Shown: piece by piece, positions 7,592 through 45,500 of the stretch
Position numbering within the stretch: the stretch's first letter is position 1
Layout: every line of letters begins with the position of its first letter
Assembly (NCBI GenBank): GCA_011389855.1
Contig: JAABTM010000004.1
Coordinates: 1-51,635, forward strand
Length of the DNA stretch: 51,635 nt
Direction of reading: 5' to 3'
Source: Desulfobacteraceae bacterium
GTDB taxonomy: Bacteria; Desulfobacterota; Desulfobacteria; Desulfobacterales; JAABSP01
The notes under the pieces: generated by a model
Seen by the model: the letters and a program-made list of their open reading frames with translations, nothing else
What the model was told of the DNA's origin: nothing
Databases searched by the model: none
Made by a program: the position numbers and the translations under genes

Positions 7592-7613
7592 GGGATGAAA
7601 TCCGGGATGATGT

Positions 7614-27261: not shown

Positions 27262-27268
27262 CGACGCC

Positions 27269-27906: not shown

Positions 27907-28148
27907 GCGGGCAACTGGACATGATCATTCTGCTCTTCGTGATCATCAGCGGGATCGGCGCCATCACCGTGCGGGATCTGCTGGGCGCCGCCATCCTTTT
28001 CGGCGCCTACAGTTTTCTCATGTGTCTGCTGTGGGCCATCATGGGGGCCGTGGACGTGGCCTTTACCGAGGCTTCGGTGGGGGCCGGGGTCAGCACGGTC
28101 CTTTTTGTCGCCGCGGTATTCCGAACCACAAGGAGGACCAAAGATTGA
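27903..28148 (+). CDS. MnhB N-terminal-like (DUF4040 / MbhD-like) small membrane subunit
   Basis: The ATG at 27903 overlaps the mnhG stop (ATGA). 81 aa, with AVDVAFTEASVGAG as in DUF4040. Confidence 0.75.
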   Translation: MSGQLDMIILLFVIISGIGAITVRDLLGAAILFGAYSFLMCLLWAIMGAVDVAFTEASVGAGVSTVLFVAAVFRTTRRTKD

Positions 28149-28978
28149 AGCTCGTCGCCCTGGCTTCGGCGCTGTTGTGCGGGACGATCCTGCTTTTCGG
28201 GACCGCGGAGTTTCCCGATTTCGGCGATCCCGATTCTCCGGCCGCGTCCCATGTCTCCCCCCGTTACATCGAAGAGGCCATGGCGGAGACCTCGGCGCCC
28301 AACATCGTCACGGCGGTGCTGGCCGACTACCGCGGATTCGATACGCTCTTCGAGACAGCGGTGGTCTTCTCGGCGGCCATGGCCTGTTTCTTTCTGCTCC
28401 GGATCTTCGGCGAAGATGAGCGGCGGCCCTCGGAGAAGCTCTACCGCCACCTCCCGACGGGGATCACCCTGCGCATCGACCCCGGCGGGAAAGTGCCCGA
28501 TTCCCCCGAGTTCGAGCGGATCGACGGCATCTGGATCCCCCACGACGTGATCGTCAAGACCACCACCCGGCTCATCATCCCCTTTATCCAGCTTTTCGGC
28601 CTCTATGTCATCGCCCACGGCCACCACAGCCCGGGCGGCGGATTCCAGGGCGGGGTGATCCTGGGGGCCTCGGTGATCCTGTACGCCATCTCCCAGAACC
28701 TTCGTCAGGCGTTGGGCCGGATGGGGGAGGCGGTCAGCGCGGTCTTCTGCGCCGCCGGGGTCTTCATTTACGCCGGCGCCGGGGCCCTGTGTCTGCTGAT
28801 GGGGGCCAATTTCCTCGATTATTCGGGCCTGGCGCCCCTTTTCGGCGTGGATGCGATCCAGGCCCGGTCCCTGGGGATTCTGGTGGTGGAGATCGGCGTG
28901 GGTCTCGCCGTCATGTCGGCCATGGTCTGGATCTACTACAATCTCGCCTCGATGGGGCGCCACCAGGAAGGCCTCTAG
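28145..28978 (+). CDS. mnhB: Mrp/Mnh antiporter subunit B (MbhE+MbhF-like regions fused)
   Basis: The TTG at 28145 overlaps the previous stop. NIVTAVLADYRGFDTLFETAVVF and GHHSPGGGFQGGVILG. Confidence 0.8.
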   Translation: MKLVALASALLCGTILLFGTAEFPDFGDPDSPAASHVSPRYIEEAMAETSAPNIVTAVLADYRGFDTLFETAVVFSAAMACFFLLRIFGEDERRPSEKLYRHLPTGITLRIDPGGKVPDSPEFERIDGIWIPHDVIVKTTTRLIIPFIQLFGLYVIAHGHHSPGGGFQGGVILGASVILYAISQNLRQALGRMGEAVSAVFCAAGVFIYAGAGALCLLMGANFLDYSGLAPLFGVDAIQARSLGILVVEIGVGLAVMSAMVWIYYNLASMGRHQEGL

Positions 28979-28987
28979 CGGAGACGG

Positions 28988-29413
28988 ATGCCCATGAGCG
29001 AGTTCATCGATTTTTTCGTCGGCAAGTATAATTACTGGGCGTTCATCCTCCTGATGATGATCGGCCTTTACGCCATGATCGCCAAGAAGAACCTGGCCAA
29101 AAAGATCATCGGGATGAACATTTTCCAGACCGCCATCATCCTCTTTTACATCTCCACCGCGGCCAAAGGAGGGGGCGCCAGTATTCCCATCATCGCCCAC
29201 GGCCACGGCCATGGCTTGAGCGAACACGGCGCCCGGGCCGCCGACTACATCAATCCGCTCCCCCATGTGCTGATGCTCACCGCCATCGTGGTCTCGGTGG
29301 CCACCCTGGGGGTGGCCCTCACCCTGGCCGTCAAGGTCTACCACCAGTACGGCACCCTGGAGGAGGATGAGATCGCCGACCGCATCCGGGCCCAGACGGG
29401 CGGTGAACCATGA
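28988..29413 (+). CDS. mnhC: Mrp/Mnh antiporter subunit C (NuoK-like)
   Basis: 141 aa. The first and last TM helices are NuoK/MnhC-like, with an unusually long Gly/His-rich loop (GGGASIPIIAHGHGHGLSEHGARAADY). Confidence 0.75.
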   Translation: MPMSEFIDFFVGKYNYWAFILLMMIGLYAMIAKKNLAKKIIGMNIFQTAIILFYISTAAKGGGASIPIIAHGHGHGLSEHGARAADYINPLPHVLMLTAIVVSVATLGVALTLAVKVYHQYGTLEEDEIADRIRAQTGGEP

Positions 29414-30909
29414 GCCCACATCTGCCCGCCCTGCCGGTGGTTGTCCCGCTGCTCTCGGCGCTGTTGATTACCATCCTGGGATGGTCTAACCGACGACTCC
29501 CCTTTCCCATCGCCCTTGTGGCGCTGACAGCTGGTCTGCTGTCGGCCCTCGGACTAATGAAGGATGTGCTGGCCCGGGGGGTGATCGGCTACAACATGGG
29601 CGGATGGGACCCGCCCTGGGGCATCGCCTATCGGGTGGATCATCTCAATGCACTGGTGCTGGTGGTGGTGATGGCCGCGGCCCTCATCGGGCTCATCGCC
29701 ACGCGGGACCGGGTGAAAGCGGAGTTCGAGGATCGGATCGTCCCCTTCTACACGCTCTTCGTCCTCTTTGTCACGGGCCTGTCCGGCATTCTCCTGACCG
29801 GGGACGCCTTCAACCTCTATGTGCTGCTGGAGATCGCCTCCCTGACCGGCTACGCCCTCATCGGCCTGGGGGAGGGCCGGGCGCCCCTGGCCGGCCTCAA
29901 CTACATCCTCATGGGCACCATCGGCGCGTCCTTTTATCTGCTGGGCGTCGGCTACCTCTATCTCATGACCGGCACCCTCAACATGGTCGATCTGGCGGCC
30001 CGGCTGCCCGGTCTCTACGATTCCCATGTCGTGGCCCTGGCTTTTTTCATCTGCCTGACAGGGCTCTTCGTTAAAATGGCCTTTTTTCCGGTCCATGTCT
30101 GGCTGCCCAACGCCTATTCCAACGCGTCCTCCGCCGCCGGCATCCTCATCGCCCCGCTGACCACCAAGGTGATGATCTACGTGATGATCCGGATCACCCT
30201 GACCGTTTTCACCCCCGACTACGCCTTCGACGTTCTGGACATCGGCGACGCGGTCGTATGGCTGTCGGTGATCGCCATCGTCATGGGATCGGTTTTCGCC
30301 CTGGCCCAGAACCGGCTGAAACGGATCCTTTCCTACATCGTCGTGGCCGAAGTCGGATACATGGTGGGGGGATTCTGGCTGGGGAACCGGGCCGGCATCA
30401 CCGGGTCGATCCTTCACATCGTCAACGACGCCGCCATGACCCTTTGCGTCTTTCTGGCCGCGGGCGCGCTCCTGACCCGGGTCCCGGGCGACCGGCTGAT
30501 CCATCTCCAGGGGCTGTTCCGGAAGATGCCGGTTTCCATGGCGGCCCTGGTCGTCGGCGGGCTTTCCATCATCGGCGCGCCGCCCACCTGCGGGTTTTTC
30601 AGCAAATGGTATTTGATCTCCGGCGGCATCGACGCGGGCCATTACGGGTTCGTGGCGGCCCTGCTCTTTTCCAGCCTGGTCAACGTCGCGCTCTTTTTCC
30701 GGGTCTTCGAAATCGCCTACTATGAACCCTTTGGCGCCGATCACGGCCACGACCCCCGCGCCCACGGCGCTTCCGGACGGGAGGACGCCCCGGCGGCCAT
30801 GCTGGCGCCCCTTGTGGTGGTCGCGGTGCTGCTGGTGGCGCTGGGACTCTACAGCGGCGATCTGGTATCGGCCATCATCCAACACGCCATCCCCGCGCGG
30901 ATCATCTGA
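29410..30909 (+). CDS. mnhD: Mrp subunit D / NuoM-N-like antiporter subunit, copy 1
   Basis: 499 aa, Proton_antipo_M-type pattern (FPVHVWLPNAY..., GLSIIGAPPTCGFFSKW). Confidence 0.85.
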   Translation: MSPHLPALPVVVPLLSALLITILGWSNRRLPFPIALVALTAGLLSALGLMKDVLARGVIGYNMGGWDPPWGIAYRVDHLNALVLVVVMAAALIGLIATRDRVKAEFEDRIVPFYTLFVLFVTGLSGILLTGDAFNLYVLLEIASLTGYALIGLGEGRAPLAGLNYILMGTIGASFYLLGVGYLYLMTGTLNMVDLAARLPGLYDSHVVALAFFICLTGLFVKMAFFPVHVWLPNAYSNASSAAGILIAPLTTKVMIYVMIRITLTVFTPDYAFDVLDIGDAVVWLSVIAIVMGSVFALAQNRLKRILSYIVVAEVGYMVGGFWLGNRAGITGSILHIVNDAAMTLCVFLAAGALLTRVPGDRLIHLQGLFRKMPVSMAALVVGGLSIIGAPPTCGFFSKWYLISGGIDAGHYGFVAALLFSSLVNVALFFRVFEIAYYEPFGADHGHDPRAHGASGREDAPAAMLAPLVVVAVLLVALGLYSGDLVSAIIQHAIPARII

Positions 30910-30912
30910 TAC

Positions 30913-32397
30913 ATGGAATCCATCGTCTCCCTCAAGCCACTGGCGGCCGTCCTCGTTTCAATCCTCGTCGTCCCTCTGATCATCCGGAGCGGAAACCGGC
31001 CCAACCTGCGGGAGGGGTGGACCTTCGCCGCCGCCGGCATCAAATTCCTGATCGTGGCCTCCATGGTTCCGGCGGTCCTGGGCGGGGCGAAACTGGAGCT
31101 GACCATCGCCCAGGTGCTGCCGGGGGCGGCCATCGCCTTCCGGGTGGACGCCTTCGGGCTGCTCTTCGCCCTGGTCTCGTCGTCGCTCTGGATCGTGACC
31201 TCCGCCTATTCCATCGGCTATATGCGGGGGCTGGACGAACACAGCCAGACCCGGTATTTCTGCTTTTTCGCCCTCTCCCTGTCGGCGACCATCGGGGCGG
31301 CGTTCTCCGCGAACTTGCTGACGCTCTATCTCTTCTACGAGATGCTCTCCTTCGCCACCTATCCGCTGGTCACCCACCACCAGGATATGGAGGCCCGGAG
31401 TTCCGGGCGGAAATATTTATTCTACATCGTGGGGTCGTCCATCGGGCTGGCGCTCCCGGCCATGGTCTACATCTACACCGTCTCGGGGACCCTCGATTTC
31501 GCCGCCCAGGGGGTGATGCCGGCATCGGTCCCGCCGGCCGTGCTGACGGCGCTGGTGCTGATGCTCCTGTTCGGGTTCGCCAAGGCCGGGGTGATGCCGT
31601 TCCATTCGTGGCTTCCGGCGGCCATGGTGGCCCCCACGCCGGTCAGCGCGCTGCTCCATGCGGTGGCCGTGGTCAAGGTGGGCGCCTTCTGCGTCTTCCG
31701 GGTCCTGACCGGGGTGATGGGAGCGGACCTGCTCACCGGCGCGGGACTGGGGACCCTGGTCTGTTACATCGCGGCCTTCACCATCATTGTCTCGTCCCTC
31801 ATCGCGCTCTCCCAGGACGGGTTGAAGCGGCGGCTGGCCTTTTCCACCATCGGCCAGCTCTCCTACATCGTGCTGGGGGCGGCCCTGCTCACGCCCGACG
31901 GATTGACCGGGGGCATGCTCCACATCGCCATGCACGCCTTCGGCAAGATCACGCTTTTTTTCTGCGCCGGCGCCATCTTCGTGGCGACCGGCGTCAAGAA
32001 CATCAGCGACATGACGGGCATCGGCAAGCGGATGCCCATCACCATGACGGCCTTTTTCATCGGATCGTTGAGCGTCATCGGGCTCCCGCCCTGCGGCGGG
32101 TTCATCAGCAAATGGTTCCTGGTGATGGGAACCCTGGAAGCCCGGCAATATGCGATGCTGGTCGTCATCCTGACCAGTTCCCTGCTCAACGCGGCTTACT
32201 TTCTGCCCATCGTCTACCGGGCGTTTTTCTGCACGGAGGAAGAATCCAAATTCGACAACCGGATGGGGGAGGCCCCCCTGTGGTGCCTCGTTCCGTTAAA
32301 GCTGACGGCGTTTATATCGATCATTCTGTTTCTCTATCCTAAACCGTTTTTGGATTTGGCGAGGCTGGCGGTGGTACAGATTTTAGGAGGCCCATAG
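30913..32397 (+). CDS. mnhD: Mrp subunit D / NuoM-N-like antiporter subunit, copy 2
   Basis: 494 aa. MPFHSWLPAAMVAPTPVSALLHA and GLPPCGGFISKW. Confidence 0.85.
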   Translation: MESIVSLKPLAAVLVSILVVPLIIRSGNRPNLREGWTFAAAGIKFLIVASMVPAVLGGAKLELTIAQVLPGAAIAFRVDAFGLLFALVSSSLWIVTSAYSIGYMRGLDEHSQTRYFCFFALSLSATIGAAFSANLLTLYLFYEMLSFATYPLVTHHQDMEARSSGRKYLFYIVGSSIGLALPAMVYIYTVSGTLDFAAQGVMPASVPPAVLTALVLMLLFGFAKAGVMPFHSWLPAAMVAPTPVSALLHAVAVVKVGAFCVFRVLTGVMGADLLTGAGLGTLVCYIAAFTIIVSSLIALSQDGLKRRLAFSTIGQLSYIVLGAALLTPDGLTGGMLHIAMHAFGKITLFFCAGAIFVATGVKNISDMTGIGKRMPITMTAFFIGSLSVIGLPPCGGFISKWFLVMGTLEARQYAMLVVILTSSLLNAAYFLPIVYRAFFCTEEESKFDNRMGEAPLWCLVPLKLTAFISIILFLYPKPFLDLARLAVVQILGGP

Positions 32398-32523
32398 ATG
32401 AGCGAAGACGAAAAAATGATCCTGGCCCATGAGCCGGTTCCGGGCTATCCGAAGATATTCGCGTTTGTGCTGGTCATCGCCATAATTCATCTGGGATTCA
32501 TTTTTCTCAGGAGCCTTTTTTAA
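32398..32523 (+). CDS. 41-aa single-TM peptide within the Mrp operon
   Basis: Not in the ORF track. The ATG immediately follows the TAG of the previous gene. MSEDEKMILAHEPVPGYPKIFAFVLVIAIIHLGFIFLRSLF. Confidence 0.45.
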   Translation: MSEDEKMILAHEPVPGYPKIFAFVLVIAIIHLGFIFLRSLF

Positions 32524-32550
32524 GGAACACGGACCGGGAGCCGATTGCCC

Positions 32551-32808
32551 ATGAAACGGGAATTGAAGATTTTCGACAATCCGGACAACGTCAAACGGTT
32601 GCTTCGCGTATTCTACGCCTCGCTGGTGGTGCTGGTGCTGCTCGATTTCGTCATCCACAAGCACGCGGCGTTTCCCTGGGAGGGTCGGTTCGGGTTTTTC
32701 GCCACCTACGGGTTCGTCTCCTGCGTGGCCCTGATCTTTATCGCCAAAGGGCTGCGGCGGTTGATTCGAAGGGATGAAGACTACTACGACAGGCCGGAAG
32801 ACTCATGA
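32551..32808 (+). CDS. small two-TM membrane protein within the Mrp operon
   Basis: ATG at 32551 (the track uses TTG 32545). The stop overlaps the next start (ATGA at 32805). Confidence 0.55.
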   Translation: MKRELKIFDNPDNVKRLLRVFYASLVVLVLLDFVIHKHAAFPWEGRFGFFATYGFVSCVALIFIAKGLRRLIRRDEDYYDRPEDS

Positions 32809-34586
32809 ATTCCCTATCCTTCGGTACAGGCATGCCTCCGGCGCTGATTTTCATCATCGGCGCGCTGTTCATCCCCCTGCTCAGGGGCCGGGTCAAATCC
32901 GCCTTCATGCTGCTGCTTCCGTTGGCGGCTTTTTATGTGCTTCTGACGGTCCCGGAGGGGATGCACTGGCAGTTCCGGCTGCTCCACTACGATCTGACCC
33001 TCGGCCGGGTGGACCGGCTCAGCCGGGTCTTCGGGTACATCTTCACCCTCATCTCCTTCATTTCGCTGATCTACGCACTGAAAGTCGACGACGACCTGCA
33101 GTACGTCTCCGGCCTCTGCTATGCGGGCGGCGCCCTGGGCGTCACCTTTGCCGGGGATCTCTTTACGCTCTATATTTTCTGGGAAATCATGGCCGTGGCC
33201 TCCACGTTCCTGATCCTGGCCCGGCGGACAAAGGCCGCCCAGGGGGCGGCGTTTCGTTATATTCTCGTCCATATGTTGGGCGGTTTGTGCCTCCTGGCCG
33301 GCATCGTCCTCTATGTTCACCGGACCGGAACCATCGCGTTCGGCCACATGGCGCTGGCCGGGGCGGACACCTGGCTGATCTTCATCGGCATCGCCGTCAA
33401 CGCGGCCATCCCGCCCCTCCATCCATGGCTTCAGGACGCTTACCCCGAGGCCACGGTGGCGGGGGCGGTCTTTCTGAGCGCCTTCACCACCAAGAGCGCC
33501 GTCTACGTCATGGCCCGGACCTTCGCCGGCACGGAATTGCTGATCTGGCTGGGGGCGCTCATGACGGTGATCCCCATCTTCTACGCGGTGGTGGAAAACG
33601 ACATCCGGCGGGTGCTGGCCTACAGCCTCATCAACCAGGTGGGATTCATGATGTGCGGCATCGGCATCGGGACCCAACTGGCCATCAACGGCGCCGTGGC
33701 CCACGCCTTCTGTCACATTCTTTACAAGGCCCTGCTCTTTATGGCCGCCGGGTCGGTGCTCCAGATGACCGGCAAGATTCGATGCACCGAACTGGGCGGG
33801 CTTTACAAAACCATGCCGCTTACCTGCTTTTTTTGCATCATCGGGGCGGCCTCCATCGCGGCCTTTCCCTTTTTCAGCGGATTCGTGAGCAAGTCCATGA
33901 TCGTGAGCGCCGCGGCTTACGGCCATCTGGCCGTGGTCTGGCTGATGCTCCAGTTCGCATCGGCCGGTATCGTACCCTATGTGAAGGTCCCCTATTTTGC
34001 CTTTTTTGGCCATGATTCGGGCATTCGGGCGGAGGAACCGCCGTTTAACATGCTTGTCGCCATGGGCATGGCCGCTTTTTTGTGTGTGTTGATCGGCGCA
34101 TTCCCCCAGCCGCTCTATCATATCCTGCCATATCCGGTTGATTATGCGCCGTATACGGTTGTCCATGTGGTGGATAAGCTTCAATTGCTCATGTTCGGGC
34201 TGCTGGCATTCTGCCTGCTGATGCTGTCGGGCTGGTATCCCGCGGAAATGCGGTCCATCCATCTCGATGTGGATTGGTTCTACCGAAAAGGGGTACGGGT
34301 TCTCTACCGCCTGATAGATCAGGGATTGAACCGCCTCAATGCGGTTTGTGATGAACTCTTCGCCCGAAAGCTGCCCGGACTTCTGGCCTGGATCGCCAAG
34401 GACGGGCCGGCGCTGCTGATTGTTTTATTCGCTTCGCCGTTTAAAGCCATGAGCGGTGCGGGGGAAGAGGAGATGGATGACTATAAACGGAAGATCCATG
34501 CGACCTTCGATACGCTTTCCATTCCCATCGGTCTAGGGGCGGCCGCGGCGGCCTTGTTTGTGGTCTTGCTGGTCTGGGTCAACTGA
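32805..34586 (+). CDS. NuoL/MrpA-D-like antiporter subunit, copy 3
   Basis: 593 aa. PPLHPWLQDAYPEATVAGAVFLSAFTTKSAVY, FPFFSGFVSKS and an extra C-terminal extension. Confidence 0.85.
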   Translation: MNSLSFGTGMPPALIFIIGALFIPLLRGRVKSAFMLLLPLAAFYVLLTVPEGMHWQFRLLHYDLTLGRVDRLSRVFGYIFTLISFISLIYALKVDDDLQYVSGLCYAGGALGVTFAGDLFTLYIFWEIMAVASTFLILARRTKAAQGAAFRYILVHMLGGLCLLAGIVLYVHRTGTIAFGHMALAGADTWLIFIGIAVNAAIPPLHPWLQDAYPEATVAGAVFLSAFTTKSAVYVMARTFAGTELLIWLGALMTVIPIFYAVVENDIRRVLAYSLINQVGFMMCGIGIGTQLAINGAVAHAFCHILYKALLFMAAGSVLQMTGKIRCTELGGLYKTMPLTCFFCIIGAASIAAFPFFSGFVSKSMIVSAAAYGHLAVVWLMLQFASAGIVPYVKVPYFAFFGHDSGIRAEEPPFNMLVAMGMAAFLCVLIGAFPQPLYHILPYPVDYAPYTVVHVVDKLQLLMFGLLAFCLLMLSGWYPAEMRSIHLDVDWFYRKGVRVLYRLIDQGLNRLNAVCDELFARKLPGLLAWIAKDGPALLIVLFASPFKAMSGAGEEEMDDYKRKIHATFDTLSIPIGLGAAAAALFVVLLVWVN

Positions 34587-34621: not shown

Positions 34622-35104
34622 ATGATCAGCCGGGATGAACTCAAACGGATCGTTATGCTGGGCTATCTCAAGGATGAGATGCTGGATAAGCTTTGCCCTG
34701 TTGTGGATGTCCTTAATTTCAGCGAACGGGAATACGTATTCCGGCAGGGCGACGTGGCCGACCGGTTCTACATGCTGAGACGAGGGAAAATTCTGTTCGA
34801 GCAGCGGATATCCGATAAAATGACGTTGTCCATGGGCGGCGTCAAGCCGGGATATTCTTTTGGATGGTCCTCGATGCTGGATGTGCAATTTTATAGTACG
34901 GACGCCGTCAGCGCCGAGCCGAGCGAGGTTTTTTCCATCATTGGGCGAAAGCTCAAAAAACTGCTCGAAGAGGATCATCAGATGGGTCATATCTTTTCGC
35001 AAAGATTGCTGCGGGTCATGAAAAGCCGGTTGGATCATCGAACGGAGCAGTTTACGCGGGTGATTCGGAACCATCCCGATCTCCGGTCCCTTTTCGACGA
35101 GTGA
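34622..35104 (+). CDS. stand-alone cyclic-nucleotide-binding-domain protein
   Basis: 160 aa with a cNMP-binding fold pattern (F.EREYVFRQGDVADRFYMLRRGKILF). The phosphate-binding cassette looks degenerate (FGWSSML...YSTDAVSA rather than FGE...R(S/T)A). Confidence 0.65.
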   Translation: MISRDELKRIVMLGYLKDEMLDKLCPVVDVLNFSEREYVFRQGDVADRFYMLRRGKILFEQRISDKMTLSMGGVKPGYSFGWSSMLDVQFYSTDAVSAEPSEVFSIIGRKLKKLLEEDHQMGHIFSQRLLRVMKSRLDHRTEQFTRVIRNHPDLRSLFDE

Positions 35105-35187: not shown

Positions 35188-35814
35188 TCATGCATTTTTA
35201 AACTTCAAATAGAACTTCACCATTTCAGAGGCCGTGTCGATATCGAGCTTGTTCATGTTGAAAACAAAATGGTAAAGGTTCGGATCGTCATAGTCTTCAC
35301 GCCCGAAACACCGATAAAGGTTTCTCCGGCGCTTGTCCTGCTTTTCCACCACCAGGGCGGCCTGCTTCCTGGAGAGGCCGTACTGTTTCTCCAGGAACGT
35401 GATTCGATGCGCCAAATCGGCCAGCATGAGAATGTGAACGGCATTTGGGTGGTCTTTGAGGATGTACTGGCCGCCTCGCCCGATGATCACCATGTCCCCG
35501 TCTTCAGCCATGCGTCCGATGATTTTATGGAGCAAGTTCACATAAATGCGTTCGTCGATATACCCTTTTCCGTGCTCTGAGATGCGATCCACGTAGTTTT
35601 TACGGAACGGTCCCATGCCGGAGATGTAGCGGAGAAGCGTCCCTCCCGCTTCGTTTTCGATGGATTTGACCCAGTTGGGCGAGACCCTCGCCTCATGCGC
35701 CACCCGCTCGATGATGTCCTCATCCACCAGGGTATAGCCCAGTTTTTCGCTGATCAAGTTGCCCAGGGTCCTTCCGCCGGCGCCGAACTGCCTTGAAATG
35801 GTGATGGTGGCCAT
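35188..35814 (-). CDS. cytidylate-kinase-like family protein
   Basis: 208 aa. P-loop-like ITISRQFGAGGRTLG. Confidence 0.7.
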   Translation of the reverse strand: MATITISRQFGAGGRTLGNLISEKLGYTLVDEDIIERVAHEARVSPNWVKSIENEAGGTLLRYISGMGPFRKNYVDRISEHGKGYIDERIYVNLLHKIIGRMAEDGDMVIIGRGGQYILKDHPNAVHILMLADLAHRITFLEKQYGLSRKQAALVVEKQDKRRRNLYRCFGREDYDDPNLYHFVFNMNKLDIDTASEMVKFYLKFKNA

Positions 35815-35988: not shown

Positions 35989-36567
35989 TTATTCCGGGGT
36001 CGTGGCCGTCAGGTACTGTTCGACGATTTTCCGGTCGTCCTCTTCGGTGATCTCTTTGGGCAGCCGCTCCATGGCCTTTTCGATGGCCGCGTCGATGAGT
36101 TCGGACCGGAACGTCGCCTTGGCCTGGACGATCCGGGTTTCGATCTTCTGTTTGGCGGTGTGCAGAATCAGCCGGCTTTGTTCCTGAGCGTCTTCGATGA
36201 TCTCCTGCTTCTTTTTCTCGCCCTGCTGTACGATCTTCTTTTTGAGCGCCTCGAAGCGGGCGTCGCTCTGGTCGAGGATGCGGTAAGTGTCGTTGATCTT
36301 GGCCATCACCGCTTTCTTCTTCTCCTCGATGTCGCCGATTTCACGGGCCAGTTCCGCTTTGCGGCCCGACAGAAAATCCTTGATGGGTTCTTTGCCGAAT
36401 TTCACGATAACAAAGGCCAGTATCCCGAAATTGACCCACATCATGATCAGGTCATAGGTCGAGCGCCAGTTTCCGGATGCTTCGGCGGCCAAGGCGTCGG
36501 TGCTTGTTATCAAAATTGGCAGCACCCAGGCGGTGGTCGTCAGGATAATCCGATGCCTTTTCTTCAT
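35989..36567 (-). CDS. atpF: F-type ATP synthase subunit b
   Basis: 192 aa. N-terminal TM segment and a long charged helix. Position in the operon supports the call. Confidence 0.8.
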   Translation of the reverse strand: MKKRHRIILTTTAWVLPILITSTDALAAEASGNWRSTYDLIMMWVNFGILAFVIVKFGKEPIKDFLSGRKAELAREIGDIEEKKKAVMAKINDTYRILDQSDARFEALKKKIVQQGEKKKQEIIEDAQEQSRLILHTAKQKIETRIVQAKATFRSELIDAAIEKAMERLPKEITEEDDRKIVEQYLTATTPE

Positions 36568-37025
36568 TTGCCGATCCTCCGGTCCAGGATTTTTTCCATG
36601 ATCCGCATCGACAGCTCTTCCGACTCCTTTTGAATGGATTTCCTTGCCTCGGCGAGCTGGCCCGCCACCTCTTCTTCGGCCTGATCCTTGAGTTCCGCCA
36701 CCTCTTTCCGAACGGCGGAGAATATCTCTCCGGCCCGATTGCCGCCGGCCTCCTCCACATCTTTCCGGAGAGCATGGGCCTGTTCGCGGGTGGCCGCTTC
36801 CTGACGATCAAGAAGTCGCGAGACTTTGTTCAATTCGCTTTCCGTTTCGATGATCTCGTTCTGAAGGGTATCGATGTATTCCGTTCTTTCCGCCATCACC
36901 CCCTCCAGGGGCCGAAACATCAACCGGTTGATCAGGAACAGAAAAATCAAAAAGGAGAGAAGCTGGACGATTAGCGTCTCATTGATACTGATCAGGGCTA
37001 TATTGCTGACGATTTCCATTGGCAA
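36564..37025 (-). CDS. F-type ATP synthase subunit b'
   Basis: 153 aa with the same architecture. The stop overlaps the atpF start. Confidence 0.75.
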   Translation of the reverse strand: MPMEIVSNIALISINETLIVQLLSFLIFLFLINRLMFRPLEGVMAERTEYIDTLQNEIIETESELNKVSRLLDRQEAATREQAHALRKDVEEAGGNRAGEIFSAVRKEVAELKDQAEEEVAGQLAEARKSIQKESEELSMRIMEKILDRRIGK

Positions 37026-37300: not shown

Positions 37301-37334
37301 GATTACCTCCAGATGATAAGGTTAAAATAAGGTT

Positions 37335-38309
37335 TTAAATTAAGAATATAAGCGCTAACGCTATGACCATGGCATAAATGGCCGTGGATTGTGAGACCGC
37401 TTGTCCGACGAGCATCGTTCGCATTAATACCGCTTCCTGCCTGACGTTTCGTGCAACCCACCCCACGGCGCTTTGGGCTGTCATGCCGTTGCCGACGCCG
37501 GGGCCGATACCGCCGAAACCGATGCAGAGGCCGGCCGATACCAGGGCAATGGATGCGGCCAGTGTTTCCGACGGCGCATAGGATTTGAACATCAGCACGA
37601 AGCTGATCAAGAGACCGAAAATCGAGGGCGTCTGGGCGACGGCTTGTCCGACCAGCATGATGATCGTGACATTGGCCGAGGTGAGCGGTTGCCTGGCCGA
37701 GCCCTGACAACTGGCCCCGGCGGCGAGTCCGCTGCCGAGCCCCGAGCCGATGGCGGCGAGGCCGGTGGCGAAACCCGCGCCGAGCAAAGCCGCCGACGTC
37801 GGATGCAGAGGCGCGCCGGAGTAGTTGATAAACATCAGCATAAACGACACGACCATGGCAAAAATGGCCGGCGTTTGACTGACGGCGGAGCCAATCAGCA
37901 TATTGGTCGTGAGATTGCCTTTCACGGCCGGCTGGCGCGACACGCCCTCGCATGCTTCACCTGCTGGAAAGCCCGACCCGACGCCGGATCCCATGGCGCC
38001 GAATCCCATGCAGATGCCCGCGCCCAACAATGCCGCGACGGAAATGGGCGCCGCCGCTGAAAAATTGGAAAACAGGAGTATCACGCCGATGACCAGCGCG
38101 AAGATCGCCGCGGTTTCGGCGACCGCCTGCCCCACGAGCATCAACTTGAAAATATCGCCGGAGGAATCGGGGCTCCTCGCAATGGCGTCATTGGCTTTGG
38201 CGGCGGCGAATCCTTCACCGATCGCGGCGCCGATGGCGCCGAGCCCCATAGACAGTCCGGCGCCGGCAAACGCCGCCACTTTTACCCAGGATTCAATATC
38301 GTTCAACAT
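37335..38309 (-). CDS. fused four-hairpin (about 8-TM) ATP synthase c subunit
   Basis: 324 aa uninterrupted. It consists of four tandem c-subunit hairpins: 38061..38309, 37821..38060, 37578..37820 and 37338..37577. Each has a Gly-rich helix 1, a polar loop (ARSPD, SRQPA, ARQPL, ARNVRQE) and helix 2 L(V/I)G(Q/S)AV(A/S)(E/Q)(T/S). Confidence 0.85.
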   Translation of the reverse strand: MLNDIESWVKVAAFAGAGLSMGLGAIGAAIGEGFAAAKANDAIARSPDSSGDIFKLMLVGQAVAETAAIFALVIGVILLFSNFSAAAPISVAALLGAGICMGFGAMGSGVGSGFPAGEACEGVSRQPAVKGNLTTNMLIGSAVSQTPAIFAMVVSFMLMFINYSGAPLHPTSAALLGAGFATGLAAIGSGLGSGLAAGASCQGSARQPLTSANVTIIMLVGQAVAQTPSIFGLLISFVLMFKSYAPSETLAASIALVSAGLCIGFGGIGPGVGNGMTAQSAVGWVARNVRQEAVLMRTMLVGQAVSQSTAIYAMVIALALIFLI

Positions 38310-38999: not shown

Positions 39000-39392
39000 C
39001 TAAACCTGTTTTTGGCCCGCGCGGGTCGGTAAGAGGATGGTTAATATGTGATCGCTGACAATAACGAAAGGGATTGAAAACAGACCAATGACGACGCCGA
39101 GGAGGTCAATGCCGGCCAGCTTGATGGAAGCCACGAGGGGAAGGGCCATCAACCCATAACGGAAAAAAATGGAGCCTATGGAGAAGAAAAACGTCTTTGC
39201 TTGTGAACGGTTCATCCGCATGGAAATCGACTGCGCCATGAGGATAAAATTGATGATACTGAACAGGGTCCCGAGGATCATGCCTTTGCCCATGGGCTTC
39301 AGGTCGGCAAGTATCAGAACACCGCCTGCGACGATAGCCAGCGTCAGGGCTGTGGAACAGTACCGCTTCTGTGTGCTTCTAATCGGCTCCAT
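39000..39392 (-). CDS. atpI: ATP synthase protein I-like membrane protein
   Basis: This is the track ORF trimmed to the ATG at 39392. Four TM segments, and its position upstream of atpB supports the call. Confidence 0.6.
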   Translation of the reverse strand: MEPIRSTQKRYCSTALTLAIVAGGVLILADLKPMGKGMILGTLFSIINFILMAQSISMRMNRSQAKTFFFSIGSIFFRYGLMALPLVASIKLAGIDLLGVVIGLFSIPFVIVSDHILTILLPTRAGQKQV

Positions 39393-39678
39393 TTTGCGAG
39401 GATGTGTCCTCCTCCTTTTCCTCGATGACCTCAAGAATCTGACGGTAGGAGACGTTGGCGCCGCCGATTACCCCCAAAATGATGGATATCGTCGTGAAGA
39501 CGCCCCGGGTCCCGGCCCATTTGTCGATGGTCCATCCGATAAAAAAGCAAAAGAGAATGGAACCTACCATGGTGAGGCCCAACTGCATGACGACGGACAG
39601 ATTTTCTGTCCAGGCGCGGTTCTTTTTATAATCGAAAATTATAGATCCCGTCTCCTTAATTATCTTACTGCCGGGCAT
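39379..39678 (-). CDS. AtpZ/AtpI-family small membrane protein
   Basis: This is the track ORF trimmed to the ATG at 39678. LGLTMVGSILFCFFIGWTIDKWAGTRGVFTTISIILGVIGG resembles the AtpZ family. Confidence 0.6.
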   Translation of the reverse strand: MPGSKIIKETGSIIFDYKKNRAWTENLSVVMQLGLTMVGSILFCFFIGWTIDKWAGTRGVFTTISIILGVIGGANVSYRQILEVIEEKEEDTSSQNGAD

Positions 39679-39859
39679 TAGGTAACAAAAGCGGCAAAGG
39701 TCTGTCAAGCAGATAATTGGCCTCCACCGAAGAGCGATGACCCGCCTTCCGCAAGGTACTGGGATAAATCCAGGCCTTTGCGGATGAAAAAGTGTTTGTA
39801 ATCCGAAGACATTCATTTTAAAATACCTTTTTGGTCAGATCAGGGAGGCGGGTGAATTC

Positions 39860-40885: not shown

Positions 40886-41689
40886 ATGACCGTATACAGA
40901 CAGAACGAAACGCGGCCGGAACGGATCGCCCTTACCATTGTAGGGTCGGGAACCTGTGTTCCCTCCCTGCGGCGCGGCGCCTGTTCGGTGCTGATGAGGA
41001 TCGCCGGGCGCTCGCTGTTGTTCGACTGCGGAGCCGGGACCATGCGCCGGCTCCTGGAGGCGGGGATCACGATCTTCGACATCGACGTCATCTTTTTCAG
41101 CCATCTCCATCCGGACCACAGCGGCGAACTCGCCGCCTTCTTGTTCGGCGCCAAATACGGCGGCGGACCGTCTCCGCGGCGGCCTCTCGCCCTGGTCGCC
41201 GGCAAGGGGTTTTCCGATTTCTTCGAGCGCTTGCGGGGGGTCTACGGCCAGTGGATCGATCCGGGCGAGGAAGGGTTGAAGATCGTCGAACTGGACGGCG
41301 GCCGGTCGGAAGAATTCCGGATCGACGACATCGTGGTCCGCTGCGCGCCAGCGGCCCATATCGATTCGAGCCTGGCCTACCGGGTCGCGGCGCCCGGCGG
41401 AGGGACGGCGGTCTATTCCGGCGATACGGACGTCAGCGACTCAGTGGTGGAACTGGCGAAGGGGGCCGATCTCTTCATCTGTGAATCGGCCCTGCCCGAC
41501 GAACACAAGGTCTCGGGCCACCTGACGCCCTCCCTGGCCGGGGAAATGGCGGCCAGAGCCGGTGTCGGGCGGCTGGTGCTTACCCATTTTTACCCCGAGT
41601 GCGACGCCGTGAACATCGCGGCACAGTGCCGGAAAACCTACGACGGTCCGCTGGTGCTGGCCGAAGACCTGCTGCGGTTGACGGTATGA
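40886..41689 (+). CDS. MBL-fold metallo-hydrolase
   Basis: HLHPDHSGEL (HxHxDH), then later GDTD and LTHF. Confidence 0.8.
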   Translation: MTVYRQNETRPERIALTIVGSGTCVPSLRRGACSVLMRIAGRSLLFDCGAGTMRRLLEAGITIFDIDVIFFSHLHPDHSGELAAFLFGAKYGGGPSPRRPLALVAGKGFSDFFERLRGVYGQWIDPGEEGLKIVELDGGRSEEFRIDDIVVRCAPAAHIDSSLAYRVAAPGGGTAVYSGDTDVSDSVVELAKGADLFICESALPDEHKVSGHLTPSLAGEMAARAGVGRLVLTHFYPECDAVNIAAQCRKTYDGPLVLAEDLLRLTV

Positions 41690-42378
41690 GCGGGACGCAT
41701 CGATATTACCCGGTCAACCTGGACATCCGGGACCGCCGGTGCCTGGTGGTGGGCGGCGGCGGCGTGGGGACCCGTAAAGTCGAAGGGCTGCGGGCCTGCG
41801 GCGCCCGGGTTACCCTGGTGAGCCCCCGGATATCGGACCGACTGCGGCCCCTGGCGGCGGACGGCCGGATCGAGTGGCGGGACCGGGACTACCAGACCGA
41901 TGATCTGGACGGCATGTTCCTGGTCATCGGCGCCACCGACGACGCGGATCTGAACCGCCGGATCCACGCCGACGCCGTGGACCGGAACATGCTCTGCAAC
42001 ATCGCGGACCGGCCCGAGGTCTGCAACTTCATCCTGCCGGCGGTGGTCCGGCGGGGAGATCTCATCCTGGCCGTCTCCACCTCGGGCCGGAGCCCGGCCT
42101 TCGCCAAAAAACTGCGGAAGGAGCTGGAGGCCCGGTTCGGCCCGGAATACGCCCTTTTCCTAAATCTCATGGGGGCCGTCCGGGCGAAGCTGCTGGCGGA
42201 GGCACATGCCCCCGAGGCCCACAAGCCCCTTTTCGAGGCCCTCATCGACCGGGATCTGCCGGGGCTGCTCAAGGCCGGGGAGATGCCGGCCGTGGACGCC
42301 GTCCTGTCCGATGTGCTGGGGCCGGGGTTCCGGTACGACGATCTCATGGACGACGGGCAACGGGGGGCGACCTCATGA
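41686..42378 (+). CDS. precorrin-2 dehydrogenase / sirohydrochlorin ferrochelatase (siroheme synthase N-terminal-domain type)
   Basis: The ATG at 41686 overlaps the previous stop (ATGA). YPVNLDIRDRRCLVVGGGGVGTRKVEGL Rossmann motif. 230 aa. Confidence 0.8.
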   Translation: MSGTHRYYPVNLDIRDRRCLVVGGGGVGTRKVEGLRACGARVTLVSPRISDRLRPLAADGRIEWRDRDYQTDDLDGMFLVIGATDDADLNRRIHADAVDRNMLCNIADRPEVCNFILPAVVRRGDLILAVSTSGRSPAFAKKLRKELEARFGPEYALFLNLMGAVRAKLLAEAHAPEAHKPLFEALIDRDLPGLLKAGEMPAVDAVLSDVLGPGFRYDDLMDDGQRGATS

Positions 42379-43199
42379 TGCAGCTGTTTTCCATGGCGGC
42401 CCTTTTCCTCTATCTGCTGAGCACGGCGGGGTACGTGAGCTACCTCTTTTTGCAAAAGGACGTCCTCCACCGGGCGGGATGGGGACTGCTGGGGGCGGGA
42501 TTTCTGGCCAACCTGGCCGCCATCCTCTATGAATTTATAGCCGCCGGACGGTTTCCGGTGGGAAATCTCCAGGAGACCCTCTCGGTGGCCGCCTGCACCC
42601 TGGCGGGCCTGTTCCTGGTGTTTCAGCACCGGTACCGGCTGCGGGTCCTGGGCGTCTACGCGGCGCCGCTGGCGGCCCTGATCATGTCGGTTTCGGTCCG
42701 GTTGCCCAAAGCGCCTTCCCAGATGGAGATCGTGTTCAACAACTTCTGGATCATCTTCCACGTGGTGGTGATCTTCATCGGCAACGCCGCCTTCGCCCTG
42801 GCCGCCGGGGCCGGCATCCTCTATCTTATGCAGGAAAGCGCCATCAAGGGCAAGAATCACGGTTTCTTCTTCCACCGGCTCCCCTCCCTCAACCTTCTGG
42901 ATACGGTGGGGTACGCCAGCATCGTGGTGGGCTTCACCATGTTCACCCTGGGCCTTATCACGGGGTTTCTGTACGCCAAGATGGTCTGGGGCCGGTTCTG
43001 GAGCTGGGACCCCAAGGAGGTCTGGTCCGGCGTCATGTGGCTCTTCTACGCCGCCCTGCTCCACGAGCGGCTGGCGACCGGCTGGCGGGGCCGGAAGGCC
43101 GCCATCATGTCCATTGTCGGATTCGGGGTGCTCCTGTTTACCTTTCTCGGCGTCAATTTTCTCCTGACCGGTCATCACGGCGCCTTTACCCGGTGGTAA
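42375..43199 (+). CDS. CcsA/HemX-like cytochrome c assembly family membrane protein
   Basis: 274 aa, polytopic. Trp-rich motif WGRFWSWDPKEVWS. Start overlaps the previous stop. Confidence 0.75.
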   Translation: MMQLFSMAALFLYLLSTAGYVSYLFLQKDVLHRAGWGLLGAGFLANLAAILYEFIAAGRFPVGNLQETLSVAACTLAGLFLVFQHRYRLRVLGVYAAPLAALIMSVSVRLPKAPSQMEIVFNNFWIIFHVVVIFIGNAAFALAAGAGILYLMQESAIKGKNHGFFFHRLPSLNLLDTVGYASIVVGFTMFTLGLITGFLYAKMVWGRFWSWDPKEVWSGVMWLFYAALLHERLATGWRGRKAAIMSIVGFGVLLFTFLGVNFLLTGHHGAFTRW

Positions 43200-43233
43200 G
43201 GCCGCCGCCGCAACCAAATACTGAACAGCAGTC

Positions 43234-44565
43234 ATGGATTACATCATTATATTGGGGTTGAACCACAAAACCGCTCCCGTGGAATTGCGGGAGTGCCTGG
43301 CCTTTTCCGGGGAAGAGACCGATGCGCTGCTCCGTTCTTTTTCGGAGCACGCCGCCATCAAGGAATCGATCCTGGTTTCCACCTGCAACCGGGTGGAGAT
43401 CCTTCTGACCTCGCCGGACAGCGACGCGGCCATCGGGGCCGCCAAACGGTTTATTTCGGAATACAAACGGATCCCCGTGTCCCGGTTCGAGGAGAGCCTC
43501 TACATCCACCAGGGCGACGACGCCATCCGCCACATCTTCCGGGTGGCCGCCAGCCTCGATTCCATGGTGGTGGGCGAGCCCCAGATCCTGGGGCAGATCA
43601 AGGAGGCCTACCGGACCGCCGCCCTGAAGCGGACCTCGGGGGTCATCCTCAACCGGCTGCTCCACAAGACCTTTTTCGTGGCCAAACGGGTCCGGAGCGA
43701 GACCGGCATCGGCGACCACGCGGTCTCCATCAGCTACGCGGCCATCGAACTGGGCCGGAAAATCTTCGGCAGCCTGGAGGGGATGCGGGTTCTGCTCATC
43801 GGCGCCGGGGAAATGGCCGAACTGGCGGTGGAACACCTCATCCGTCACCGGTCCGGGGATATCTTCGTGGCCAACCGGACCTTCGAACGGGGCATCGAGC
43901 TGGCCCGCCGCTTCCGGGGAACGGCCATCCGGTTCGAGGAGATCGGCGGCATGCTCCAGAAGGTGGACATCATAATCTCCTCCACCGGCTCGCCGGAGTA
44001 CGTCATCGACCGGAAAATGGTCAAGGCGGCAATGGGCGGCCGGAAGCACCGGCCCCTTTTTTTCATCGACATAGCCGTCCCCCGGGACATCGATCCGCGG
44101 ATCAACCGGATGGACAACGCCTATGTCTACGACATCGACGATCTCAAGGGGGTCATCGACGAGAACATCGAGGACCGGAACAGGGAGGCGGTGAAGGCGG
44201 AACGGATCATCGACGCCGCCGTGGTCAGCTTCCGAAAGTGGTACGAAAGTCTCGACGTGGTGCCGACCATCAAGGCCCTCCGGGGGAAGATGGCGGAGAT
44301 CGCCCGGTCCGAGGTGGAAAAGACCCTGGGGATCCTCCACCACCTGTCGGAGGCGGACGCCGAGGCCATCCACCGGATGACCGAGGCCCTGATCAATAAA
44401 ATGATGCATGATCCGACGATTTTTCTGAAAAACAACGGCTGCCTGCGGGACAAAGCCTACTATGTGGACATCACCCGAAGACTTTTCAACCTGGACCCGG
44501 CAGAGCTGTCCGGTTCGGGGGCCCGTCCAGGGGACAGCCAACATCGCACCGAGGAGGAACTGTGA
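43234..44565 (+). CDS. hemA: glutamyl-tRNA reductase
   Basis: GLNHKTAPVELRE, the catalytic-Cys region STCNRVEI and the NADPH site LLIGAGEMAEL. Confidence 0.95.
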   Translation: MDYIIILGLNHKTAPVELRECLAFSGEETDALLRSFSEHAAIKESILVSTCNRVEILLTSPDSDAAIGAAKRFISEYKRIPVSRFEESLYIHQGDDAIRHIFRVAASLDSMVVGEPQILGQIKEAYRTAALKRTSGVILNRLLHKTFFVAKRVRSETGIGDHAVSISYAAIELGRKIFGSLEGMRVLLIGAGEMAELAVEHLIRHRSGDIFVANRTFERGIELARRFRGTAIRFEEIGGMLQKVDIIISSTGSPEYVIDRKMVKAAMGGRKHRPLFFIDIAVPRDIDPRINRMDNAYVYDIDDLKGVIDENIEDRNREAVKAERIIDAAVVSFRKWYESLDVVPTIKALRGKMAEIARSEVEKTLGILHHLSEADAEAIHRMTEALINKMMHDPTIFLKNNGCLRDKAYYVDITRRLFNLDPAELSGSGARPGDSQHRTEEEL

Positions 44566-45500
44566 AGAAATGCGCCTTTCTGTTTCCCGGCCAGGGGTCT
44601 CAATCCGTGGGGATGGGCAAAGACGTTCATGACGCCGATCCGAAGGTCCGGGAGATATTCGACGCGGTCTGCGAGATCACCCAACAAGACATCCGGAAAC
44701 TCTGCTTCGAGGGCCCCATGGATGTATTGACCGAAACGGTCAATCTCCAGCCGGCCCTGACCGCGGTCAACCTCGGGTATCTGTCCGCCCTGACGGCGGG
44801 CGGCGCGTCGCCGGTGATTTCCGCCGGCCACAGCCTGGGGGAATACGCCGCCCTGTGCGCCGCCGGCGCGCTCTCGGTCCCCGACGCCCTGGGGGCGGTG
44901 TTCAAACGGGGATCACTGATGCACCGCGAATCCCGGAAACACCAGGGGGCCATGCAGGCCATCGTGGGACTGCCCATGGAGACGGTGTCGGTGCTGGTGG
45001 CCAATGCCTCGGCCCACGGGCCGGTGTCGGTGGCCAACCACAATTCCGAGACCCAGATCGTCATCACCGGCGCGCCCGAACCGGTGGAAAAGGCGGCCAT
45101 CGCGGCCCGGGAAAAGGGGGCCAGGGCCATCCCCCTCAAAGTGAGCGGCGCCTGGCACAGCGACCTGATGCGCGGCGCCGAAGCGGAGTTCGGCGAGTTT
45201 CTGTCGGGGCTGACCTTCGGGTCCCCCAAAAGCCCCGTCGTCTTCAATGTGACCGCGGAAGTGGAGACCGATCCGGATGCGATCCGGTCCCTGATGGCCC
45301 GGCAGCTCCGCAGCCCGGTTCGGTGGTACGACATCATGGTCCGGCTGATGGGGGAAGGGGTGGAGGTCTTTGCGGAAGTGGGGCCCGGCAAGGTCCTGAC
45401 CGGCCTGCTGAAAAAGACCCTGCCCAAAGGGCATCATTACGGCATCTACAACATCAACACCGTCAAAGGGGTCGAGGATTTTCTGGCCGAGGTGGTGTAG
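44562..45500 (+). CDS. fabD: malonyl CoA-ACP transacylase
   Basis: The GTG start overlaps the hemA TGA (GTGA) and follows gaggagg. FPGQGSQ and GHSLGEY. Confidence 0.92.
   Translation: MKKCAFLFPGQGSQSVGMGKDVHDADPKVREIFDAVCEITQQDIRKLCFEGPMDVLTETVNLQPALTAVNLGYLSALTAGGASPVISAGHSLGEYAALCAAGALSVPDALGAVFKRGSLMHRESRKHQGAMQAIVGLPMETVSVLVANASAHGPVSVANHNSETQIVITGAPEPVEKAAIAAREKGARAIPLKVSGAWHSDLMRGAEAEFGEFLSGLTFGSPKSPVVFNVTAEVETDPDAIRSLMARQLRSPVRWYDIMVRLMGEGVEVFAEVGPGKVLTGLLKKTLPKGHHYGIYNINTVKGVEDFLAEVV

Follow-up and report, generated by a model that had tools for sequence, protein, structure and literature searches.

The amount of ATP that an anaerobe short of energy gains per pumped ion is determined by the ion/ATP ratio of its F1Fo ATP synthase, and this ratio has so far been thought to vary mainly by the size of the rotor ring formed by the c subunits. 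The one well-studied exception is Acetobacterium woodii, where one c hairpin is blank (i.e., lacks the ion-binding carboxylate). According to PMC9171764, the A. woodii ring is composed of nine copies of c2/3 and one copy of c1, and plasmid-based production of the enzyme in Escherichia coli has been achieved; PMC5662883 quotes ion/ATP ratios of 3–5, the A. woodii value being 3.3. In Na+ c-rings, the ion is held by Q/E32 and E65 of one hairpin together with S/T66, S/T67, and Y70 from helix 2 of the previous hairpin (ProAD supplement), and the same supplement gives this neighbor half-site rule for multi-hairpin subunits. The c subunit of Fusobacterium nucleatum has a two-carboxylate Na+ motif (PMC3692424). 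Here, we describe an atpE-like gene in a 51,635-nucleotide (nt) stretch of DNA from a Desulfobacteraceae bacterium (contig JAABTM010000004.1; this whole stretch is referred to below as the window). The gene encodes a c subunit of 324 amino acids (aa) in which four hairpins are fused and only the first has carboxylates, and we consider it probable, from sequence and gene context, that this protein (c4) is present in few copies and forms a mostly blank stretch within a mixed c-ring of a Na+-coupled F1Fo ATP synthase.

Full-text literature searches, whose coverage did not extend to Matthies et al. 2014 or to Brandt & Müller 2015 (Biol Chem 396:1031), turned up no report of an F-type c subunit that has more than two hairpins. 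The ProAD paper and its supplement give sequence logos for one- and two-hairpin subunits only, and a 2026 Desulfatiglans paper mentions only "two to four atpE copies."

Four hairpins and one carboxylate-bearing hairpin in a single chain

The open reading frame (ORF) of c4 is unbroken over all 324 aa. The PF00137 (ATP-synt_C) model has four matches in it, none overlapping another (E 4.7e-56, 187 bits vs. a cut-off of 24), the NCBIfam equivalog models for F0F1 subunit C also match in four stretches with 180–198 bits vs. cut-offs of 116–124, and TIGR01260 scores 136 bits vs. a cut-off of 44. A hidden Markov model of the hairpin that was built from the c4 sequence itself places the hairpins at residues 1–82, 88–162, 164–242, and 244–323. 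The helix-2 carboxylate is present in one of the four hairpins and is replaced by Gln in the other three, where the equivalent helix-1 residues are Ser, Ser, and Asn (Table 1). The cytoplasmic loop reads R-S-P in hairpin 1, R-Q-P in hairpins 2 and 3, and R-N-V in hairpin 4. In characterized c subunits, the R-Q-P loop touches the central stalk (R41-Q42-P43 in E. coli).

A preliminary description of this DNA had read the ORF as four c-type hairpins of which only the first has carboxylates, had placed the gene between atpB and a normal single-hairpin c gene, and had noted a weak Shine-Dalgarno (SD) sequence for c4 and a GGAGG for the monomer. All of these observations held, as did every codon that it named, with Gln at the aligned position of hairpins 2–4. 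It had also proposed a structure prediction as a check, and the AlphaFold2 model, made with a 26-sequence alignment, confidently has eight transmembrane helices, with a predicted local distance difference test (pLDDT) of 91 and a predicted template modeling score of 0.88.

A family of four-, five-, and six-hairpin subunits

When 5.8 billion proteins were searched with c4 at E <= 1e-10, 2268 matches were obtained, the best 120 of which are all multi-hairpin proteins; the family counts below refer to these 120 and the window protein (n = 121). Four hairpins are present in 27 of them, five in 70, and six in 24, and most of the proteins are from Desulfobacterales, including Desulfosarcina, Desulfosalsimonas, Desulfatirhabdium, and Desulfarculaceae. 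The order atpZ-atpI-a-c(n)-c(82 aa)-b′-b, where c(n) is the multi-hairpin gene, is the same for the four-, five-, and six-hairpin forms, and 20+ loci share the operon. A monomer c gene with the Na+ motif lies directly 3′ of the multi-hairpin gene in each intact locus that was examined. The preliminary description, whose author knew of no four-hairpin F-type c subunit with carboxylates in one of four hairpins and had suggested searching for homologues of >300 aa and their synteny, was right about the fraction of carboxylate-bearing hairpins. However, c4 is not singular but one of many related proteins whose genes stand in a conserved operon.

The residues at the ion-binding positions depend on where a hairpin stands in the chain. 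In the first hairpin (n = 121), position 32 is Glu in 107 and position 65 is Glu in 120, followed by Ser or Thr at 66, Ala at 67 in 102, and Phe at 70 in all 121. The middle hairpins (n = 360) have Ser, Gly, or Ala at position 32, Gln at position 65 in all but one (359/360), and Thr, Pro, and Phe at 66, 67, and 70. In the last hairpin (n = 121), position 32 is Asn and position 65 is Gln in 108 and Glu in 13, and S66, T67, and Y70 are each present in 121 of 121, as in the monomer. Comparison of consensus sequences resolves these hairpins into four orthologous classes with the architecture A-B(n)-C-D. Class A comprises hairpins 4.1, 5.1, and 6.1 (i.e., the first hairpin of each form; 67–85% identical), class B comprises hairpins 4.2, 5.2/5.3, and 6.2/6.3/6.4 (71–90%), class C comprises hairpins 4.3, 5.4, and 6.5 (88–90%), and class D comprises hairpins 4.4, 5.5, and 6.6 (79–86%). 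From this architecture, we conclude that the five- and six-hairpin forms arose via duplication of the blank class B hairpin. Across the family alignment, R45, Q46, and P47 predominate in the class B and class C hairpins.

Natural variants follow the neighbor half-site rule

The first hairpin, which is followed by a blank hairpin, has lost T67 and Y70, and the middle hairpins are without both. Although it lacks an ion site itself, the last hairpin always has the S-T-x-x-Y that the next hairpin in the ring needs. In two loci of relatives (L012 and L013), the last hairpin has regained E32 and E65, and the hairpin preceding it has regained T67 and Y70, giving the pattern E:ESA..F, S:QTP..F, G:QTT..Y, E:EST..Y over the four hairpins. 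This covariation supports the rule, in which each half-site comes from the hairpin before. As judged from the aligned sequences, the multi-hairpin family obeys the half-site rule at every position.

Outside this group, other phyla have two- and three-hairpin versions, some of them carboxylate-free, within complete atpI-a-c(n)-c-b′-b-alpha-beta F1Fo operons. Three-hairpin subunits (c3) without any carboxylate are present in six species-level genomes of other lineages (L017–L021 and L025), with the pattern S/T-P..F, QTP..F, QST..Y, and they lie inside complete atpI-a-c3-c-b′-b-alpha-beta operons, each c3 gene being followed by an 85-aa c gene that has the Na+ motif. Their hosts are unclassified or "Proteobacteria"-labeled metagenome-assembled genomes (MAGs), including the closed 2.2–2.8-Mb chromosomes CP070682.1 and CP070719.1. 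Because these c3 subunits have no carboxylate, they can function only when mixed with monomers.

In two further loci (L006 and L007), the four-hairpin gene is followed by two tandem 82-aa monomer c genes.

Translation signals differ between the multi-hairpin and monomer genes

The window has the gene order atpZ-atpI-a-c4-c-b′-b, which is an F-type operon context. The c4 ATG sits 3 nt past the atpB stop codon, and predicted SD pairing is −4.7 kcal/mol for c4 vs. −10.6 kcal/mol for the GGAGG of the 82-aa c gene. The same arrangement recurs in relatives: in ~21 of ~21 loci, the multi-hairpin gene begins 1–3 nt past, or overlaps, the atpB stop, its predicted SD pairing is weak (−3 to −9 kcal/mol), and the monomer c gene has a GGAGG, for which the pairing energy is about −10 to −12 kcal/mol. 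Between c4 and the monomer c gene, no promoter or terminator signal rose above chance, and an internal promoter or terminator dividing the two was rejected. A weak start coupled to atpB for c(n) and a strong independent start for the monomer would fit a low c(n):c ratio.

A probable mixed ring with a fused blank arc

From the anatomy, conservation, half-site logic, translation signals, and operon context described above, we infer that c4 would be incorporated into a hetero-oligomeric ring in which it fills four adjacent hairpin positions and the 82-aa c makes up most of the remainder. The E32 and E65 of hairpin 1 would form the single Na+ site of c4, completed by the S-T-x-x-Y of the preceding hairpin in the ring, while hairpins 2–4, with Gln for Glu, would bind no coupling ion, and S308, T309, and Y312 of hairpin 4 would keep the site of the following monomer complete. 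Such a ring would have three fewer sites than hairpins, with the three blanks contiguous. Weak initiation coupled to the single-copy a subunit would hold c4 low, and the GGAGG-driven monomer would fill the rest. The S-T-x-x-Y of the last hairpin, the L012/L013 covariation, and the carboxylate-free c3 subunits add new support for a mixed ring with substoichiometric c4. The outcome would be fewer Na+ per ATP than in a homomeric ring of equal size, i.e., a lowered ion/ATP ratio, and the purpose may be a higher ATP yield per ion in energy-limited anaerobes, as argued for A. woodii.

The size of this effect can be estimated if an 11-hairpin ring is taken over from the solved Na+ rings 4BEM, 1YCE, and 3ZK1, whose chain counts in the PDB are nine c2 and one two-hairpin c1 for 4BEM and c11 for 1YCE and 3ZK1. 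With c4 and monomers, 11 hairpins would give 8 live sites, 2.7 Na+/ATP, and a blank arc of about 98 degrees; with c5, 7 live sites, 2.3 Na+/ATP, and about 131 degrees; and with c6, 6 live sites, 2.0 Na+/ATP, and about 164 degrees. In engineered Bacillus PS3 c10 rings, impaired sites do less harm if they are neighbors than if they are scattered (PMC8809890). Fusion would matter here because it guarantees that the blanks are adjacent.

Several points weigh against a mixed ring that synthesizes ATP. The ring size in these figures is assumed, and c4 itself is known here from its sequence and a predicted structure. The 51,635-nt window contains no F1 genes. The half-site logic is equally compatible with a second c4 as the neighbor of c4. 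In the engineered PS3 c10 ring (PMC8809890), one E56Q hairpin abolishes ATP synthesis, and three to five consecutive blanks, which span 98–164 degrees of an 11-hairpin ring, would be mechanistically demanding and may not support synthesis. The E56Q result is the foremost ground for caution and, equally, what makes the family most interesting. We regard only as a tentative possibility the broader idea that there is a widespread class of F-type enzymes whose rotor has one contiguous, fused, ion-free arc, taking up between a quarter and almost half of its circumference, and which synthesize ATP at about 2–2.7 Na+/ATP. If it were true, the rotor would be carried through about 100–160 degrees without ion-driven torque, which would challenge elastic-coupling pictures and the lethality of a single E-to-Q change in engineered rings, and about 2–2.7 Na+/ATP would fall under the quoted range of 3–5. 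The family suggests a second evolutionary dial besides ring size, namely one to five fused blank hairpins, in abundant marine sulfate reducers and several uncultured phyla; in that case, the number of blank hairpins, altered by class B duplications, would set the ion/ATP ratio. The family also lets one ask of nature how long a run of inactive positions an Fo motor tolerates; engineered rings tolerate none for ATP synthesis. Because Desulfosarcina widdelii, which has a homologue (BBO76549.1), is a cultured and fully sequenced host, the question is directly testable.

Among other explanations, it is rather unlikely that c4 sits in the ring as a latch or ratchet, with its blank arc parked against subunit a, or as a template that nucleates ring size in AtpI-assisted assembly. 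As a latch, c4 would prevent leakage of ions or futile hydrolysis of ATP when the sodium-motive force is low, or it would bias the enzyme to ATP-driven pumping. The contiguity of blanks that fusion guarantees would suit either role, as would the atpI and atpZ genes that are always upstream, the halt of synthesis by a single E-to-Q hairpin in the engineered enzyme, and the near-invariant Gln of the blank hairpins, which points to some specific contact and not just to the loss of a residue. However, the case for these roles is purely inferential, a latch function is without known precedent, A. woodii makes ATP with one blank hairpin (PMC9171764), and small-genome lineages have the gene in a single complete F1Fo operon, presumably that of a working synthase.

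We consider it quite improbable that c4 forms rings by itself, e.g., three c4 making 12 hairpins with three sites, as an alternative rotor isoform that replaces the monomer ring in particular conditions. Such a ring would have an extremely low ion/ATP ratio, or its enzyme would be dedicated to ATP-driven Na+ extrusion. The S-T-x-x-Y of the last hairpin could complete hairpin 1 of another c4, and natural F-like fusions of 5, 7, and 12 hairpins with all sites intact make all-fused rings plausible. A strong-SD monomer gene is nevertheless conserved immediately downstream in every intact locus, there is no internal promoter or terminator for separate expression, the carboxylate-free c3 relatives are incapable of making a working ring by themselves, and the four-, five-, and six-hairpin forms would require differing copy numbers and ring sizes. 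A mixed ring of c4 and monomers remains the reading that we favor.

The c4 gene is genuine and under purifying selection

The hairpins of c4 are 35–52% identical to one another in protein and 46–58% in DNA, and Tandem Repeats Finder detected no 243-nt repeat in the gene. Because the hairpins have diverged and the repeat search was blank, we conclude that c4 reflects an old duplication and not assembly collapse or expansion. An identical c4 protein is encoded on contigs of two separate SRA runs, versions 85–97% identical are present in separate MAGs, and the complete genome of the cultured D. widdelii encodes a 325-aa homologue that is 71% identical (BBO76549.1 / WP_231715501.1). Against four relatives, the ratio of nonsynonymous to synonymous substitution rates (dN/dS) of c4 is 0.05–0.15 overall and 0.03–0.18 per hairpin where dS is unsaturated. 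Every hairpin is under purifying selection, with summary dN/dS values of 0.05–0.17, and the carboxylate-free ones are as constrained as hairpin 1. Tandem repeats are prone to mis-assembly and the catalytic residue is missing in three of the four hairpins, but that the ORF is a repeated c gene expanded in assembly (or by a recent repeat expansion), or a functionless fused pseudogene or relic, is practically out of the question, the former being ruled out by the DNA divergence, the repeat search, and the independent assemblies and the latter by the low dN/dS of each hairpin, with class-specific residues conserved over hundreds of homologues besides. The c4 gene is confirmed as a genuine conserved gene.

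The D. widdelii protein was first deposited as a "hypothetical protein." Multi-hairpin proteins are annotated as this or as "ATP synthase F0 subunit C," and pipelines that derive ion specificity and stoichiometry from c subunits will miscount the sites.

Features of the window and neighboring genes

The coordinates of the operon, of the residues discussed above, and of the variants in relatives are collected in Table 1. The listed atpZ-like ORF of 145 aa overlaps atpI by 56 nt; relatives are shorter (88–122 aa). Because of this length difference and because the PF09527 match lies only at residues 74–125, translation probably begins at an internal codon, downstream of the start that is listed. 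A cytidylate-kinase-like gene lies directly downstream of atp b, and a gene for a cyclic nucleotide monophosphate (cNMP)-binding protein is specific to the window. Convergent with the atp operon is an Mrp-type multisubunit cation/H+ antiporter cluster, which would suit a cell that runs its energy economy on Na+ and interconverts Na+ and H+ gradients, and which is without a syntenic counterpart in D. widdelii. The block upstream of the atp operon is syntenic with the D. widdelii locus L001 and encodes metallo-beta-lactamase-fold, sirohaem-synthase-like, and cytochrome c assembly proteins, hemA, and an acyltransferase; this synteny assigns the window to a Desulfosarcina-like member of Desulfobacterales.

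Table 1. Positions of the Fo operon, of c4 and its residues, of neighboring genes in the window, and of variant c genes in related loci (L numbers)
Feature	Position	Strand	Evidence or remarks
atpZ-like (ATPase_gene1)	39379..39816	minus	PF09527, E 5.4e-13
atpI	39000..39434	minus	PF03899, E 3.7e-08
atpB, Fo a subunit, 224 aa	38313..38987	minus	PF00119, E 2.2e-52
atpE-like c4 gene, 324-aa four-hairpin c subunit	37335..38309	minus	ORF and ATP-synt_C matches; stop codon 37335-37337
c4 hairpin 1, class A, residues 1-82	38064..38309	minus	predicted sole ion-binding hairpin: E32, E65, T66, A67, F70
c4 E32 codon	38214-38216	minus	GAA; sequence
c4 E65 codon	38115-38117	minus	GAA; sequence
c4 hairpin 2, class B, residues 83-162	37824..38063	minus	blank: S112, Q145, T146, P147, F150; R-Q-P loop kept
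c4 Q145 codon	37875-37877	minus	CAA; sequence
c4 hairpin 3, class C, residues 163-243	37581..37823	minus	blank: S193, Q226, T227, P228, F231; R-Q-P loop kept
c4 Q226 codon	37632-37634	minus	CAG; sequence
c4 hairpin 4, class D, residues 244-324	37338..37580	minus	blank: N274, Q307; S308-T309-x-x-Y312 half-site (37374-37388) kept
c4 Q307 codon	37389-37391	minus	CAA; sequence
GGAGG Shine-Dalgarno of 82-aa c gene	37306..37310	minus	sequence
Single-hairpin c, 82 aa	37052..37300	minus	profile match, alignment; complete two-carboxylate Na+ motif (E32, E65, S66, T67, Y70)
Fo b′ subunit	36564..37025	minus	PF00430, E 1.4e-14
Fo b subunit	35989..36567	minus	PF00430, E 2.6e-13
Cytidylate-kinase-like gene	35188-35814	minus	
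cNMP-binding protein gene	34622-35104	plus	
Mrp-type antiporter cluster	27185-34586	plus	
Three Proton_antipo_M proteins of the Mrp cluster	29410-30909, 30913-32397, 32805-34586	plus	small ORFs upstream
Block upstream of atp operon	40886-45500		
Four-hairpin variant with Glu in last hairpin	L012:1920-2888, L013:6001-6969		Desulfatirhabdium / Thermodesulfobacteriota MAGs
Carboxylate-free c3	L017:5956-6708, L018:5974-6717, L019:5899-6642, L020:3192-3935, L021:5974-6720, L025:4006-4749		
Tandem monomer c genes	L006:4233-4481 and 4589-4837; L007:7000-7248 and 7356-7604		

Other multi-hairpin proteins

When 1.84 billion cluster representatives were searched exhaustively, 1833 related clusters were obtained, and the forms described here are from the best 150 of these. 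About 40 clusters (among P0199–P0270) contain four-hairpin proteins of ~312–323 aa with the pattern E, Q, E, D/E and three sites; they are 25–33% identical to c4, and their top-scoring models are those of F0F1 subunit C. By NCBIfam models, all-Glu fusions that are F-like include P0131 (5 hairpins), P0201 (7 hairpins), and P0161 (968 aa, 12 hairpins), the last of which may amount to an entire c12 ring made as a single chain. The preliminary description had taken multi-hairpin proteolipids to be otherwise a V/A-type trait, and these F-like fusions contradict that. Other giants with all sites intact are P0148 (1139 aa, 15 hairpins), P0192 (10 hairpins), P0258 (12 hairpins), and P0254 (8 hairpins); both giants that were scanned, P0148 and P0192, are V/A-type K, and V/A-type giants of 8–15 hairpins are among the best 150 clusters.

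Comparison with known systems

Among PDB chains, the best sequence match of c4 is A. woodii c1 (4bem_J, E 4.4e-27), with Glu aligned to Glu and Gln to Gln. The same protein is the best fold match of the c4 model, with a template modeling score normalized to the target (TMt) of 0.82 and a root-mean-square deviation of 1.5 A over half of the query; no PDB chain among the Foldseek matches spans four hairpins (score normalized to the query, TMq, at most 0.47). Foldseek matches 2–40 are V/A-type proteolipids with TMt about 0.8 across two hairpins.

The V/A-type proteolipids (eukaryotic c/c′/c″, Enterococcus hirae NtpK, and archaeal K with 2, 3, or 13 hairpins) resemble c4 in having fused hairpins and fewer sites than hairpins, with the lost carboxylate replaced by Gln or another neutral residue. 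In V-type rings, however, blanks alternate with live sites, whereas the blanks of c4 form a contiguous arc. We rejected assignment of c4 to this group because the best V-type K model (NF011483) scores 95.6 bits vs. a cut-off of 188 and the operon is F-type (a, c, b′, b, and atpI). Assignment to the N-ATPases was likewise rejected, as the monomer scores 66 vs. a cut-off of 130.85 with the N-ATPase subunit c model TIGR03322, c4 reaches 160 only through the sum over four repeats, and the gene order atpZ-I-B-E-E-F′-F differs from atpDCQRBEFAG.

The F. nucleatum c subunit (PDB 3ZK1; match E 4.5e-15) has E32, E65, and S/T66 like the window's monomer and hairpin 1 of c4, and T67 and Y70 like the monomer; unlike c4, it is a single hairpin that forms a homomeric c11 ring in which every site is active. 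The engineered PS3 single-chain rings (fused c2–c10; Mitome et al.) show, like c4, F-type hairpins joined by short periplasmic linkers, in functional rotors. These fusions are artificial and one E56Q kills their ATP synthesis, whereas the c4 family naturally conserves three to five consecutive Gln hairpins.

The closest parallel is A. woodii c1. As in A. woodii and Clostridium aceticum, the multi-hairpin c gene of the window stands after atpB and ahead of the single-hairpin c gene or genes in an F-type operon. The first hairpin of c1, like that of c4, keeps the Na+ site while a later one has an E-to-Q change, and both proteins have Phe at position 70 in the first hairpin and Tyr in the last. 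The two monomer genes of the L006 and L007 relatives are reminiscent of A. woodii c2/c3 (atpE2/atpE3). The differences are that c1 has two hairpins with one blank, while c4 has four with three contiguous blanks and its relatives have up to six with five blanks; that c1 uses Q32/E65, while the c4 family has the two-carboxylate E32/E65; and that the F1 genes are outside the operon in the window, unlike in A. woodii. The hairpins of c1 are 71–74% identical to the organism's own c2 and 39–46% identical to classes A–D, and these identities do not support common descent or orthology of c4 with c1. The A. woodii precedent named in the preliminary description is thus borne out as the best match in sequence and structure, but not as a source from which c4 derives. 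Judging from these sequences, c4 is apparently an independent invention that resembles c1 functionally, by convergence, with the c1 duplication being the younger. We rate c4 as an extreme, independently evolved form of the hybrid-rotor principle known from A. woodii.

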